Source: Eledone cirrhosa (Eukaryota). Taken from it: a stretch of DNA of 64,000 nt. The notes below the pieces were generated by a model, which did not search any database, had not been told where the DNA came from, and worked only from the letters and a program-made list of their open reading frames with translations. Below, piece by piece: positions 494 to 57,896 of the stretch. How positions within the stretch are numbered: the first letter of the stretch is position 1; each line of letters begins with the position of its first letter. The translations under genes were made by a program, and so were the position numbers. The stretch lies in NCBI GenBank assembly GCA_964016885.1, contig OZ024740.1, positions 179,552,001 through 179,616,000 on the forward strand. Direction: 5' to 3'.

Positions 494-1130
494 AAATGGA
501 TGTTTAGTAAAATCGAAGTTCTGGCTGCGGTCAAGCTAACGATATACAATTAGGAATGTGCAGCAAAGCACTCGATAAGGTTGTGTCACATTAGAGTCAC
601 GTTAGACAGCTTGACAAATTGAAAACTGCGGCCGGTAAGCCTAGCCACAAAATACTAAAGTAACGAAAATACCAATCTGGTTAGATAAGAGATGTGGACA
701 ATCTCGAACGATAATATGCAATAAGTCCGATAGGTTTCTATGAAAACGATATCAACAATCCAGCTTGCGCAATACGTAAGTTTGTGGTATTCGATGATCG
801 AACTGTGGACCTATGTTATCAATAGGTATCCGTTCTATGTCTCACACCGGTGTGACATGTAGCAGTCAACTCCTCCCGATGGCAGAAGTCAATGTTTCAC
901 TATCCCATGTTTTTTCCAACAAGGGAAGTAACCCCCGCTTTTTGCCGGGCAAATTCAAAGTGTGAACAAAGGAATTAATTCCGTTCTACAATCAGAAAAA
1001 GAAGCTCTCGGCTAGACGTTATTAAACAAAGATAAATTATTAACCAATCAAATAGAATTGTCAAATTAAATTAATTAATTATTATGTCTAGGAGATAATA
1101 ATAGAAATGGAAGTTTAGTAAAATCGAAGT
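494..1130 (-). mobile_element. Non-coding terminally redundant element, family A, copy 1 (unit 611 nt + 26 nt repeat)
   Basis: AAATGGA(T/A)GTTTAGTAAAATCGAAGT occurs at 494-519 and 1105-1130; (TA)n on both sides; colinear homology to 9365-10083 and to the reverse complement of 57158-57896. Strand inferred from the fixed end. Confidence 0.75.
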
Positions 1131-1261
1131 GTTGGTATATATATATATATATATATACATATATATACACACACACACACACACACACACACACACACAC
1201 ACACATATATATATATATATATATATATATATATATATATATATATATATATATATATATA

Positions 1262-2452
1262 TATATAAATCTACATACATATATACATACATACCTTTAC
1301 GTATGTATATAGCTATACATTTATATATTTGTATATATGCATGCATTTACATTTAAGGATGTTGACTTGATTTATGTTTTTTTGGTAAGGAGAGAATTTT
1401 GCCTCCAGATTTTATTACCTAGTTAGATTAACTACCATAGCTTTTCGACCTCATCGCACGGCCTGTGTGTGTGTATGTATATGTATGTATGCATGTATGT
1501 ATGTATGTATATATGTATATATGTTATCTCTTTCTCTTAATTTCGAGTATATTTTTGAGCGGCCATCTTTCTGGTGGCAAGGTTGTAAAAGAAAAGAAAT
1601 TGTCAGAAATAAAAGAAAATAAATTGAGATGACATTCTTTCGCAGCTGGCAACAATGTGGCTTACATCTTCGATCTTTGTTTTATATACCCTGCATTTAT
1701 TGTCAACTGATGGCCCTCATCTTTTGTGCAGCAGATATTTGGTAGGGAGTTATTGTTCCTGTATTGCATAGAGATATCCCTGTCGGAACTCCATGCCAGG
1801 CTTTTTGAGTGGTTTATTCCCTCTATGGTCTGTGCTTTACGTCTGAAGTATCCATGCACAACTTTTTCTGTAAATTGGTCAATTTTTTCATCTTGTTTGA
1901 ACATTGGATAGGATCTTCAGATTTCTCTGGGTGAGAGATTTATATCAGGCTTTATTCCATATCTCTCCTCCGGATCAGTGGCTATCCTAATGATATTCTT
2001 TTCTTCATGCTCATAAACCTGGGCAAGATGGATATATGTATGTATGTACGTATGCATGCGTGTGTATGTTCGTAAGTTTGTATAAGTATACACCCACACA
2101 TTTCATCACAATTGCTTCTTTTTCTTGTCATTTCTGTTGAAGTTGTTCTTGTAACAGTTGTCATAGTTTACATTGCCCTTATTTTCATTTTCTTTGATTT
2201 CTTTGGTTTTTCGTTTATTTCCCTAGGGAATTCGTTGACAAGCTTCTTTTATTTATTTTCTTCGTTTTCTTCATTCAAACGTCTCAGAGACGTACAAATA
2301 TGGCTTATAAAATTTACCAAAGTAAAGAGCCTTCCAACCCCCGCCAAAGCTTCCAACGACCCCTAACGACCCCTTGCTACAAAACGCCCCCCCCCCTGGA
2401 GCTCCGAAACGCTCCCCGGCATATTCCCCCCGTTGAGAACCTTTGTTCTACA
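1262..2452 (-). repeat. Composite dispersed repeat with a hAT/Charlie-like end; inverted copy at 5897-7125
   Basis: 2110-2450 is the reverse complement of 5897-6240, and 1262-1460 of about 6910-7125. The end reads TAGAACAAAGGTTCTCAACGGGG on minus, resembling a Charlie TIR. Confidence 0.65.
1570..2030 (-). pseudogene. R4/Dong-like (RLE) non-LTR retrotransposon internal fragment
   Basis: Translations EKVVHGYFRRK..INHSKSLAW and HIVASCERMS resemble the K-x-HG-F..W region and the HI-x-x-C part of the zinc knuckle of RLE elements; flanked by (CATA)n. Confidence 0.6.
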
Positions 2453-3220
2453 CGGAACTCTCTTCCAGCATCCCTCACTATAACTAATATACAACACACT
2501 CCCAACGTTCCTCGCTATCAATTACCACCAAACTCCCCCCTTTTCCATATATATCTCTTCCATCTGTCTCTACATAACAAGTACATAATTTGTGTCGTAT
2601 ATACAAATAGATGTGTCTTTTGGTAGTTTGGAGAGAAACAATAATTTTTGTCGAGAATCCGTAAGTTTGTGATATAAACCCATTCTATAGAATTATGTTC
2701 CATTTTTTCTTATTTGCAACTTTGAGATAATGGTTTATATTATTGATGCGAATTTCAAAATGGTTACCAACATTTTCACGCGAGAAAAAAATCCTTTTTC
2801 AGCAATCTCTGCCAGTTTCTCTTTAAACAATAATTGAATCTGTTTTCTACTCATACATTCGTGAGGACTGTTTTTAGATATTTAATTCGAAGTATCCCAT
2901 GACTAGATTTGCACATGATGGAGTATTAAACCGAACTCGGAATTGGAGATGGTTATTTTTTGTTACATAGGTGTTTTAATAAACGGCGTACATGTATGTG
3001 TTTGCGTATCTATATATAGAAAGCTAGAGTAGGAGAGAACGAGAGCAAAATGACAATGACAATGTATTTAAATGTGGGGTTTCAAATCTACATCTTATGT
3101 TAAACGAAAGCATTTGGGGCTATAGTTATGCTATTTATATCCTTGTATGTATGTGTGTGATGTGTATACCTGTCTATGTGTGTGTTTCTCTGTAAATATT
3201 GCAAAATTCAAATAATCTTA

Positions 3221-3857
3221 TCTATATATATAAAGCTGTGGTTGTCTATCTGTCTATCCATTTTTGGCACACATCTCCTCTTAGAATCTCTGACGGAATT
3301 GCACCGAAATTGCTATACTTATACATTGAGCCCTAGCGAAGACATCGGAAAAAAAATATTTCAAATTGACCCACCCTATGTGACGAAATCGAATCTAATG
3401 TATCGATTTTTGAGCGTAAGTGACGAGTTATTTCCCTTTGTTCTGTTTACATTTTCTGCGTGCAAAAATTAAAAAAATTACGCTGGCTTTCTCAGCGTTT
3501 AAAATGACATTAACACAATACACGAACAGTTGTCGAGCCAGCAACATTTTGACCTACAAAATTCATCGGTTCGAACACTAAGCTTCCATTTTGCTTCATT
3601 TCTATTTAAAAGCCCTTTAAAACAATATTTTTACTTGAAAACAAGTCTATTTAAAGACTACGTAAAACAAGCAAATATTTCGTAAAAAAAAGCAAAAGTT
3701 ATATAAGTTTATTTAAAATATATATGTATCTGTAAATTTCGTTAGGCATGCAGACAGACAGTCGTGCAGACAGACTTTAAGCCAAAAAAGAAACTTAACA
3801 TTGTAACTTTAACACAGCTACTGAGCGACCCCGAGCAACGCCGGGCTTTACTGCTAG
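3221..3857 (+). mobile_element. Non-autonomous Helitron
   Basis: Starts A|TCTATATATATAAAG; ends with GC-rich hairpin CCCGAGCAACGCCGGG, a short spacer, then CTAG|T; no TSD. Confidence 0.75.
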
Positions 3858-55699: not shown

Positions 55700-55842
55700 C
55701 TACTACTACTACTACTACTACTACTACTACTACTACTACTACTACTACTACTACTAATAATAATAATAATAATAATAATAATAATAATAATGCTACTACT
55801 ACTACTACTACTACTACTACTACTACTACTACTACTACTACT
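55700..55842. repeat. Compound (CTA)n-(ATA)n-(CTA)n microsatellite
   Basis: Direct sequence. Confidence 0.97.
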
Positions 55843-56592
55843 TAATTCATTCAAATTATAATGTGTCTAATAGTAATAGGGATGTATGTCATTAACTGTC
55901 GATTTATAGTCTTTTATACAAACGCCAGCTCTTTAATACAATCATTTTATCGAAACCATAAGGGTATATAATGTGATGTGATAGTCCTGTAAATCCGGTT
56001 TGAGTTCTAGGGGCGCCGCAGCGGTATACATCTTTTCTTGTGAATATCACATTCTTGTGAATATCCCTTCTTTATACTCTATTAACAACTTAACTGCTAG
56101 GGATGATATTACTGCTAGTGGTACAAGGGGTTTTGTAATCTTGCATTTTATCATCATAGGTAATTTCAATCGCACAACACTTAGAAATAAAAGCATTTAA
56201 CGGTGCAAAGTCCAATTTTGGATGGGAATGTAGCCCTGCTTCCTTGTTATGAGAAAGTTTCTGGTATTCAAACACATGCTCATGATTAATAGTGGATTTA
56301 TGTTTATGTAAGAAGCAGATTACAGGCGAACCCTTGAAATGTCTGCCTAGCAGTTTCGGCTTGCATGTACTAAGCCTTCTCAAGTATACACGCGTTAGCG
56401 CCTGTATTTCATTTATACACATTCTACTCCTTCCCGTGCATAACGTTCTCCTCCGATATGAATTCCCTCTCTCGCGGCATGGCACTTTCCCCCCCCTCTC
56501 TCTCTCTCTCTCTCTCTCTCTCTCTCTCTCTCCCTCTCTCTCTCTCTCTCTCTCTCTCTCTATATATATATATATATATATATATATATATA

Positions 56593-56968
56593 ATAAAATA
56601 ACAGGAGGCTGGACTGGTATAATTCCTTAAAAGCTTTATTATACTGTGATTATTTCAATGACCGGGTTCAGTATGAATCCGGTGACATCATCAGGTATTC
56701 GAAATATAACAAAGGAATATAATAGACAAAATCCATGGGGCTGAAAATCAGAGACGTGAGGGCGAGCGAACATTTAGCAGCTTCTATCCTGGACGGCCGC
56801 CCACCAGGTAGAAGTTTCAGCCCCATGGATTTTGTCTATTATATTCCTTTGTTATATTGCGAATATCTGATGATGTCACCGGATTCATACTGAACCCAGT
56901 CATTGAAATGATCATAGTATAATAAATCTTTTAAGGAATTACACCAGTCCAGCCTCCTGTTATTTTAT
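56593..56968. repeat. Inverted repeat with 154-bp arms and a hammerhead-like motif; probable PLE-type 3' end with 5' inversion extending to about 57110
   Basis: 56593-56746 pairs with 56815-56968; CTGATGATGTCACCGGATTCATACTGAACCC(A/G)GTCATTGAAA in the arms; (TA)n on both sides. Confidence 0.8.
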
Positions 56969-57157
56969 AATAATTAACTCCGTACGCGCACCACCAACTA
57001 CACAAACGAAGACGGGTTAGTTGCATTACGTTGAGTGCTCTCCATAATATTACATCGAGGTTGACCATACGGAATGACCAGTTCTATCCGGTGGTGAACC
57101 AACAAACCTAAATATATATATATATAACTTTAATCTTTTATTTTTATAAATATATAT

Positions 57158-57896
57158 AGTGTGTTTGGCCTTTTAACTTATGTTGTAGCTCTAGTTCACT
57201 AGCTTCTATGGAGCGCTTGCCACACATCTCGGAAGTTGTTTTTCGTTAATTTCCAATAGCCGAAATAGGATTCTCGCTAATTTATATGTGTATTAATCTC
57301 CAGAGTCTAGCTATTGACCAGTTAATTTTCTTGATTTTTCTAGTTAATTCTATTGACTGATGAATAGCTTTTGTTAATTTTAAAACCATTCTGCTGAGAA
57401 CTTAATTCGTTTTGTGATATTTTGCAATTTGCTATAATAACACACATACTGAATTCATCCGCCAAAACTAAGGGTTGTCCCCCTTGTCGAGCCCCACGTA
57501 GGTTTTGATAACCGTCAGTCCTTCGTTCAGCACTTGAACTAAAAGCCTGTTGAGAAAGTGACTTCCTTGTTCAATCATCTTAACAAAGGCTTAACATTAT
57601 TTGTCTAAGCAGACAGTACCTGATTTAGAAGTTGCAGAAACCCAAATGCTGGATTTTACCAACCTTCCGGTGGTCCGGGTATAATTTTCAATCATATTTT
57701 ATTTGTTTGACACGAATTACTTGGTCGTTTCTATGGCTGTGCGGATAATGGTTTAACCATCGTCTCAGTGTGTTTGGCCTTTTAACTTATGTTGTAGCTC
57801 TAGTTCACTAGCTTCTATGGAGCGCTTGCCACACATCTCGGGAGTTGTTTTTCGCTAATTTCCAATAGCCGAAATACGATTCTCGTTAATTTATAT
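57158..57896 (+). mobile_element. Non-coding terminally redundant element, family A, copy 3 (unit 609 nt + 130 nt repeat)
   Basis: 57158-57287 is repeated at 57767-57896; TA-rich flanks; reverse complement aligns loosely to copies 1 and 2. Confidence 0.78.

Follow-up and report, generated by a model that had tools for sequence, protein, structure and literature searches.

Three related non-coding repeats in a stretch of the Eledone cirrhosa genome raise the question of what kind of element they represent and how its copies reach new sites. The stretch, referred to below as the window, comprises 64,000 nucleotides (nt) of contig OZ024740.1 (assembly GCA_964016885.1, positions 179,552,001 to 179,616,000). 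The analysis points to a family of non-coding 600-650-nt repeats with a variant type I hammerhead ribozyme motif, insertion at (TA)n tracts and a fixed 3' end, and it is highly probable that this family is a retrozyme, its RNA being cut, circularised and reverse-transcribed by a Penelope-like protein. It is abundant and recently active, and likely a retrozyme of the kind without long terminal repeats (non-LTR) that is moved by a Penelope-like element (PLE). The three copies and one adjoining target tract are located in the window as follows.

Positions 494 to 1130, minus strand: copy 1, one 611-nt unit plus 26 nt, with its fixed 3' end at 494 abutting (TA)n.
Positions 9365 to 10083, minus strand: copy 2, one 647-nt unit plus 72 nt, with its fixed 3' end at 9365.
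Positions 57158 to 57896, plus strand: copy 3, a 130-nt partial unit plus one 609-nt unit, with its fixed 3' end at 57896 abutting (TA)n.
Positions 474 to 493, no strand assigned: target tract of (TA)n beside the fixed end of copy 1, its last bases matching the unit's own junction sequence (microhomology).

The periods of 611, 647 and 609 nt and the terminal direct repeats of these loci, reported in a preliminary description made from the sequence alone, have been confirmed by self-comparison of the window, which gave repeats of 26 nt (with one mismatch), 72-78 nt and 130 nt for copies 1, 2 and 3. A profile search of the window matched exactly these three loci (E 1e-160 to 1e-123). They had also been described as colinear homologs that are strongly diverged, in agreement with the finding that they represent three colinear groups, with 52-60% identity between groups and 84-96% within them. 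The two repeats of a locus are indeed more alike than the loci are, as had been pointed out; nonetheless, this is mainly a subfamily difference, since the three loci come from different subfamilies and the nearest insertion of the same subfamily is equally close.

Searches of the genome (3.0 Gb) with copies 1, 2 and 3 returned 2778, 2125 and 5044 first-look candidates, with 40 scored per query, and 90 loci were retained; such queries favour full-length copies. Nearly all of these loci start at one and the same base of the unit, next to (TA)n, and continue into a second, partial copy that measures 26-525 nt; a few insertions contain three or four units. The arrangement noticed in the window, one end fixed at (TA)n and the other variable, holds genome-wide. 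Of 82 insertions, 80 have a (TA)n tract at most 22 nt from the fixed end, and 66 have one near the other end. The fixed 3' end lies inside the repeating sequence and has a few TA bases in common with the target. The strand whose 3' end is the fixed end was taken as the RNA sense, which is the minus strand for copies 1 and 2. Fixed-length LTR-like repeats, an alternative raised earlier, do not fit a terminal repeat that varies from 26 to 525 nt, and judged on repeat length there is no fixed LTR pair. A coding unit has also been ruled out, as no open reading frame (ORF) is common to the units, the longest stop-to-stop frame reaching at most 105 amino acids in the 22 circularised units listed of the 74 extracted; the earlier observation of no shared ORF is borne out. 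A short interspersed nuclear element derived from tRNA was rejected too, with aragorn giving 0 tRNA-like modules in 14 units.

The abundance of the family was estimated by a profile search of 100 stretches of 10 kb (92 spaced picks and 8 neighbours of the window). This sample contained 14 matches corresponding to 11 insertions, mostly truncated at the variable end and occupying 0.5% of bases, or about 11 insertions per Mb, which scales to an estimate of about 33,000 insertions in the genome (Poisson range, calculated by hand, of about 16,000-59,000). Additional queries brought out more subfamilies, with 47-88% identity between cluster representatives; in one of them the copies are 97-100% identical and form arrays of up to 5 units. 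Insertion sizes form a continuous range, from stubs through 1.x units to arrays.

The hammerhead motif of the unit

The preliminary description had seen no known ribozyme in these repeats, a claim that has to be revised: a type I hammerhead occurs in all 11 parsed subfamily clusters, on the strand of the fixed 3' end. Its layout consists of stem I (ACCUG-like), a core (C/U)UGAN(G/A)A, a branched stem II of about 76-80 nt, A-GAAAC, a stem III of 27-88 nt, GUC and the stem I partner (CAGGU or CGGGU), the stems being arranged in type I order with stem I open. The motif and a further conserved structure of the unit are found in the window at the positions below.

Positions 692 to 835, minus strand: decayed hammerhead of copy 1, with pseudoknot GAAC at 835-832, core UUGAUAA (U3-A8) at 822-816, GAAA from 738 and GUC at 699-697; stem I is disrupted by mutations.
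Positions 9572 to 9771, minus strand: type I hammerhead of copy 2, with pseudoknot GAAC at 9771-9768, stem I formed by 9762-9758 with 9576-9572, canonical core CUGAAGA at 9757-9751, a 79-nt stem II, GAAA at 9671-9668, a long stem III and GUC at 9579-9577; cleavage is predicted between 9577 and 9576.
Positions 57536 to 57680, plus strand: type I hammerhead of copy 3, with pseudoknot GAAC at 57536-57539, stem I formed by 57545-57549 with 57676-57680, core UUGAGAA (U3-A8) at 57550-57556, an 80-nt stem II, GAAA at 57637-57640 and GUC at 57673-57675.
Positions 983 to 1095 (approximate limits), minus strand: conserved long 5' hairpin of the unit in copy 1, with closing helix CUCCUAGA/UCUAG..GAG and compensatory changes between subfamilies.

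Column counts were made on 11 of 14 clusters, the other three being single decayed copies. In all 11, U4, G5, A6, A9, G12, A13, A14, A15.1, C15.2, G16.2, U16.1 and C17 are the commonest letters, and N7 varies across clusters (U, G/A, A, C). The 3:8 pair covaries, with C-G in one cluster and U-A in seven, so that 8 of the 11 have one of these two pairs, and the non-standard wobble U3·G8 in three. At the base of stem II, positions 10.1 and 11.1 are unpaired in every cluster (A·A or C·A), in departure from the pairing that is usually, though not universally, expected there. U·U mismatches have been reported in active hammerheads (PMC3088659; PMC7229834), and in view of both points the family has been filed as a variant. 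The junction at the cleavage site carries G2.1-C1.1 in 29 of 29 and 8 of 8 copies.

Conservation of the pairing has been assessed in 19 aligned copies, where 90.6% of cells pair as against 28-47% in slid controls, a comparison biased in favour of the structure because it was named from these very sequences. Double-sided changes occur in 8 of 24 pairs, and the percentage paired, the double-change cells and the covariation score exceed those of all 500 shuffles. A relaxed hammerhead descriptor recovered 62 of 115 units in sense, none of the 115 in antisense and none of 355 completed shuffles, its 53 misses including whole clusters with a weak fifth pair in stem I. An exact motif pattern, which leaves out long-stem-III subfamilies such as that of copy 2, has 4475 matches in the genome and none for the reversed control. 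A search with Rfam models, at E<=1 for the window and at E<=10 for two short stretches, gave no hammerhead match, probably because stem II is long; in the window it returned microsatellite-driven microRNA hits only, and in the short stretches nothing relevant. A canonical CUGANGA-N3-40-GAAA regular expression also found no motif in the units, stem II being too long for it. Hairpin, hepatitis delta virus-like, RNase P/MRP and group I motifs, compared by eye with consensus structures, were dropped, as their pairings were inconsistent across subfamilies.

The GAAC..GTTC element highlighted in the preliminary description is conserved, but it is better read on the opposite strand, not as a hairpin but as a pseudoknot that brackets stem I, the core and stem II. 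Bases 5' of stem I form 4-6 base pairs (bp) with the internal loop of stem II, and these covary (GAAC/GUUC, UGAAC/GUUCA, AGAAC/GUUCU, GGACA/UGUCC), the pseudoknot with covariation being present in 11 of the 13 clusters listed. Both the hammerhead pairs and the pseudoknot covary across subfamilies, and the earlier proposal of a structured RNA is supported. The sense strand folds better than the antisense strand (z of -1.2 to -6.9 versus +0.3 to -2.7 in seven copies, with 12 shuffles each). The long 5' hairpin shows compensatory changes (alignment columns 10-46 with 76-122); RNAalifold on the whole unit recovered this hairpin and part of stem II and did not recover stem I. In three of the seven copies the hammerhead fold is the minimum-energy fold, and in the other four it lies 0.2, 1.6, 3.5 and 10.0 kcal/mol above it; in L032, a close relative of copy 2, the two folds coincide. 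An unrecognised ribozyme or another circularisation route, as had been proposed, gives way here to a hammerhead whose class is known but whose core is variant and whose stem II is long, and since the unit carries it the family is classed as a retrozyme rather than as a new processing route.

A CACGTG/CATGTG motif is conserved upstream of the hammerhead in the unit (for instance at window positions 9816-9821), and a similar CACGTG-like motif adjoins a CCAAT box in the untranslated region (UTR) of a Neptune-type element of the window (about 21455-21470). As a sequence motif, it is a possible candidate for an internal promoter.

Insertion ends, arrays and the template

For each of three subfamilies, 5' ends were mapped on the 30 loci that best matched its last 120 nt, and these 90 loci gave 85 distinct insertions and 84 mappable ends. 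Within 0-31 nt downstream of GUC, an interval picked after looking at the data, lie 31 of the 84 ends, compared with 8.4% expected (binomial p 5e-13), with 12/26, 10/28 and 9/30 in the individual subfamilies. The peak tracks the GUC site despite its differing distance from the 3' end (240, 213 and 221 nt), and two ends fall exactly at the predicted cleavage site (L294 and C1:18.91 Mb). Many of the 5' ends lie on short TA matches, which is consistent with trimming at joining. Read from the sequences, the accumulation of ends would fit templates with a cleaved 5' end.

The exact-pattern search exposed a 615-nt subfamily with a U3-A8 core and long arrays, a young lineage with 720 exact 3' ends and 1416 exact internal junctions genome-wide. 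Arrays of 13-19 units have the fixed 3' end at (TA)n and start at an arbitrary phase; five of the six examined share that end, and the remaining one runs into an assembly gap. Two arrays adjoin such gaps, one of them at its 5' end, which makes their lengths uncertain. The longest arrays measure 10.0 and 11.5 kb and contain 15 and 18 full units that are identical to one another. When nine arrays were compared unit by unit, some of them picked for deviating spacing (616, 617), eight were found to carry their own haplotype in every unit, with 2 to about 27 differences from the reference unit in a nested series; the array at C1:119.98 Mb, for example, has two variants in all 10 units fetched. The core letters stay constant along the haplotype series except at N7, 10.1 and position 8. 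A new variant in all units of a young array is most simply explained by repeated copying of one monomer, that is, of a circle.

A life cycle consistent with these data would begin with transcription of a copy with more than one hammerhead. The motif described above would then cut after GUC, 213-254 nt upstream of the fixed 3' end, and the monomer would be ligated into a circle, a reaction shown with RtcB for monomers of other animal retrozymes (PMC7229834). A protein with GIY-YIG and reverse transcriptase (RT) domains would presumably nick (TA)n, the target tract observed, and prime at one internal AT-rich site in the RNA, the observed start of the insertions. Internal initiation and AT-rich cleavage have been reported for a Penelope-like protein in vitro, the start site there not being homologous to the target (PMC11167929). 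Early halting of the RT, most often at the hammerhead, would leave stubs of 200-240 nt, and continued copying round the circle would yield the 1.x units or arrays of up to 11.5 kb that are found in the genome, probably by a rolling-circle mode. Tandem complementary DNA from circles has been proposed for retrozyme insertion (Cervera & de la Pena, PMC7229834); Li et al. (2026) describe their own life-cycle evidence as limited and favour local amplification for tandems. The earlier inference of a structured, non-coding and non-autonomous retroelement copied past its junction, with a fixed 3' end at (TA)n and likely with a Penelope-like driver, is upheld, and the array haplotypes favour a circular template.

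Several observations weigh against this account. The stop rate at the hammerhead is alike on the first pass (26/79) and on the second (4/15, counted by hand), so that stalling at a tight structure could produce the ends instead of a cleaved 5' end, and a second accumulation of 5 ends lies at the 5' junction of the unit (hazard of 1.13 per 100 nt). In the array of 13.5 units at C1:44.27-44.28 Mb (L342, L343), a mosaic is seen in which one variant is present in 5 of 13 units with no period; one clean circle would not give this pattern, for which assembly noise, template switching and later conversion are candidate causes. In the older subfamilies, the two repeats within an insertion resemble each other no more than they resemble the nearest other insertion, both repeats have just 63 of 396 rare variants in common, and a comparison of divergence within and between insertions in six of these subfamilies did not discriminate between templates. 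As for the ribozyme itself, its fold lies 3.5 and 10 kcal/mol above the free fold in two of the seven copies, the pseudoknot is weak in two examples of the youngest lineage (GGAU/AUUC), the counts of double-sided pairs and of pair types failed to beat the shuffles (94 and 184 of 500), and catalysis may be weakened by U3·G8 in the core and by A·A or C·A at 10.1·11.1. No autonomous element with sequence common to the family was found in the approximately 1.8 Mb examined. It has also been reported that eight of nine Xenopus retrozyme dimers showed no cleavage in vitro (Li 2026, 10.64898/2026.07.22.740005) and that a PLE inserted without hammerhead activity in vitro (PMC11167929).

The similar stop rate at each pass, the single mosaic array and the availability of genomic arrays for transcription would also suit the same element and ribozyme copied from a linear multimeric transcript of the arrays, or from monomers joined by RT template jumping, with a circle being unnecessary. 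This is nonetheless unlikely, as a new variant can become fixed in every unit of an array, as in 8 of 9 arrays, only through a monomer bottleneck, and the cleavage-site junctions are precise (29 of 29 and 8 of 8 copies), which would not be expected from jumping as it is known for R2-type RTs. A linear template does gain support from in vitro work in which a PLE used mainly uncleaved RNA as its substrate (PMC11167929).

Another proposal, made for tandem retrozymes (Li et al., 2026, 10.64898/2026.07.22.740005), is that retrotransposition brings only short copies and that the arrays then grow where they landed, through unequal crossover or slippage (satellite birth). It is considered very unlikely here given that the arrays are dispersed, with the fixed 3' end at (TA)n, arbitrary-phase 5' truncation and 15 and 18 identical units, and that sizes are continuous from stubs via 1.x units to arrays; in its favour are the mosaic at C1:44.27 Mb, the uncertain lengths of the two arrays abutting assembly gaps and the uniform appearance that collapsed repeats can take on after assembly polishing. 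The least probable reading, to which hardly any weight is given, is that the unit is the pseudo-LTR (pLTR) of an autonomous PLE elsewhere and the copies its truncated remains. Many Xenopus retrozymes have been traced to pLTRs (Li et al., 2026), and the search for a partner, in which no unit joined to an RT/GIY-YIG ORF was found, covered about 1.8 Mb only. However, copies that extend beyond one unit always enter the same unit and never an ORF, the family profile has no match in the UTRs of the window's PLEs, and 22 loci with both a Penelope-like fragment and the family show no ORF-to-unit fusion by coordinates, the closest (L054) having a TA tract in between. A pLTR can still be the origin of the family. 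Copying of a hammerhead-processed circle by a Penelope-like RT is preferred.

Penelope-like elements and other repeats of the window

Penelope-like fragments have been found in the window and in 18 of the 100 sampled stretches. Those of the window are listed below.

Positions 17530 to 22566, minus strand: decayed Neptune-type PLE with a pLTR.
Positions 29171 to 32806: inverted-repeat copy of the decayed Neptune-type element, ending in (TA)n.
Positions 7560 to 8470, 28782 to 29122 and 43243 to 43582: another Penelope-like family, with a GIY-YIG end, a canonical hammerhead (at 8219, 28822 and 43283) and a fixed end at (TA)n.

The elements at 17.5-22.6, 29.2-32.8 and 7.6-8.5 kb have a C-terminal GIY-YIG domain after a CX4CX2C linker, with Pfam support for one of them, and none matches the family profile. 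Two of the three, at 7.6-8.5 and 29.2-32.8 kb, terminate in (TA)n, the target that the family also uses. The C-terminal GIY-YIG domain and the linker indicate Neptune as described in PMC8557442, and Naiad has been rejected as the partner on these grounds. Judging from these sequence features, the partner enzyme is likely a Penelope-like protein of Neptune type. An ATAT match just within the start of the ORF marks the 3' end of the Neptune-type element, with a 17-nt repeat present three times. Its 1.4-kb UTR contains no canonical hammerhead by regular expression, and may hide a variant one.

Other repeats were seen alongside. A second retrozyme-like family (window positions 16384-17530 and 43733) has a 427-nt unit starting at (TA)n and a minimal hammerhead with core CUGACGA, a U·U mismatch and a palindromic stem III, located at 16683 on the minus strand and at 17433 and 43733 on the plus strand; its inverted dimer adjoins and truncates a Penelope-like GIY-YIG sequence at about 17530, and many copies occur at other loci. 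A near-intact long interspersed nuclear element, L1/Tx1-like by its motifs, occupies 10611-16143 on the minus strand, with ORF1, endonuclease and RT in three long frames, and fragments are present at 45.8-47.1 kb. Long palindromic inserts lie beside TA tracts at 22570-22760 and 56589-56972, the first starting with AAATGAAAA, like retrozyme ends. At least eight further hammerhead-bearing repeat families were noticed in about 1.8 Mb (L140, L146, L153, L121, L131, L132, L116 and others), among them L140, a 310-nt tandem with at least 11 units; L146, whose 528-nt unit has a 50-nt stem II that opens with a C·A mismatch; and a family, represented by L153 and L141, in which the core is U3-A8.

Relation to known elements and significance

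The family shares with the non-LTR animal retrozymes, as portrayed in PMC7229834 and Li (2026), its non-coding tandem units with one type I hammerhead each, low GC content, a range from monomers to multimers and co-occurrence with Penelope-like elements. Its unit falls within the 51-972 bp range given by Li et al. (2026) and is longer than the 170-400 nt reported for invertebrate non-LTR retrozymes. The hammerhead differs from those of the latter elements in its branched stem II of about 80 nt, its long and stable stem III, its pseudoknot and its mostly U3-A8 or U3·G8 cores; most metazoan type I hammerheads are stated to have a 4-bp helix II and a 1-2-bp helix III (PMC4209133). The strict (TA)n targeting and the fixed internal 3' end set the family apart as well. 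The Penelope-like hammerheads covered in PMC4209133 are minimal, being dimer-dependent or without recognisable tertiary contacts, whereas the motif described here has a predicted monomer fold, a pseudoknot and an ORF-less unit. A pseudoknot between stems I and II (found in all three types and in about 40% of representatives), natural U3-A8 pairs and a tolerated U10.1-U11.1 mismatch are likewise features of the hammerheads presented in PMC3088659; the portion of that account considered here contains neither U3·G8 nor an A·A or C·A mismatch at 10.1/11.1.

With respect to insertion, the family is similar to Neptune, Naiad and non-autonomous Chlamys elements such as MRC1, for which PMC8557442 describes partial tandem insertions, 5' truncation, microsatellite targets ((TA)n for Naiad) and head-to-tail multicopy non-autonomous forms. 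It differs from them in having no ORF and no detected similarity to an autonomous family, and according to the same account Naiad and most Chlamys elements have no canonical hammerheads. The main text of PMC13282606 does not mention a ribozyme or retrozyme. No description of the family or its motif was found in the literature, Repbase/Dfam and the supplements of papers lying outside that search and possibly listing it as an unclassified repeat. Taken one at a time, U3-A8, the pseudoknot, a mismatch where stem II begins and a large stem III all have precedents in the sources at hand; an animal retrozyme that combines them with an 80-nt stem II and U3·G8 cores was not found in a search that covered the literature outside the supplementary hammerhead lists of PMC4209133 and PMC7229834.

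A more far-reaching proposal can be put forward tentatively, with somewhat less than even confidence: that each array is a single insertion in which a Penelope-like enzyme made up to 19 turns (11.5 kb) of rolling-circle reverse transcription, and that the motif represents an undescribed subclass of long-armed, pseudoknotted type I hammerheads, active even with U3·G8, in a retrozyme that is currently amplifying. An RT able to displace strands across 10 kb of a circle would be technically interesting. The natural series of hammerhead cores (C3-G8, U3-A8 and U3·G8, with mismatched 10.1·11.1) and the covarying pseudoknot are suited to kinetic studies. How animal retrozymes enter new loci is still at the stage of hypothesis, and the family permits a direct test, as its very young subfamily offers hundreds of insertions with readable ends, lengths and haplotypes, eight of nine arrays fitting one-circle copying. 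Since standard models miss hammerheads with a long stem II, statements that Penelope-type repeats have "no ribozyme" should be checked again. If a long-armed subclass does exist, many Penelope-type and unclassified repeats regarded as ribozyme-less would hide such motifs.

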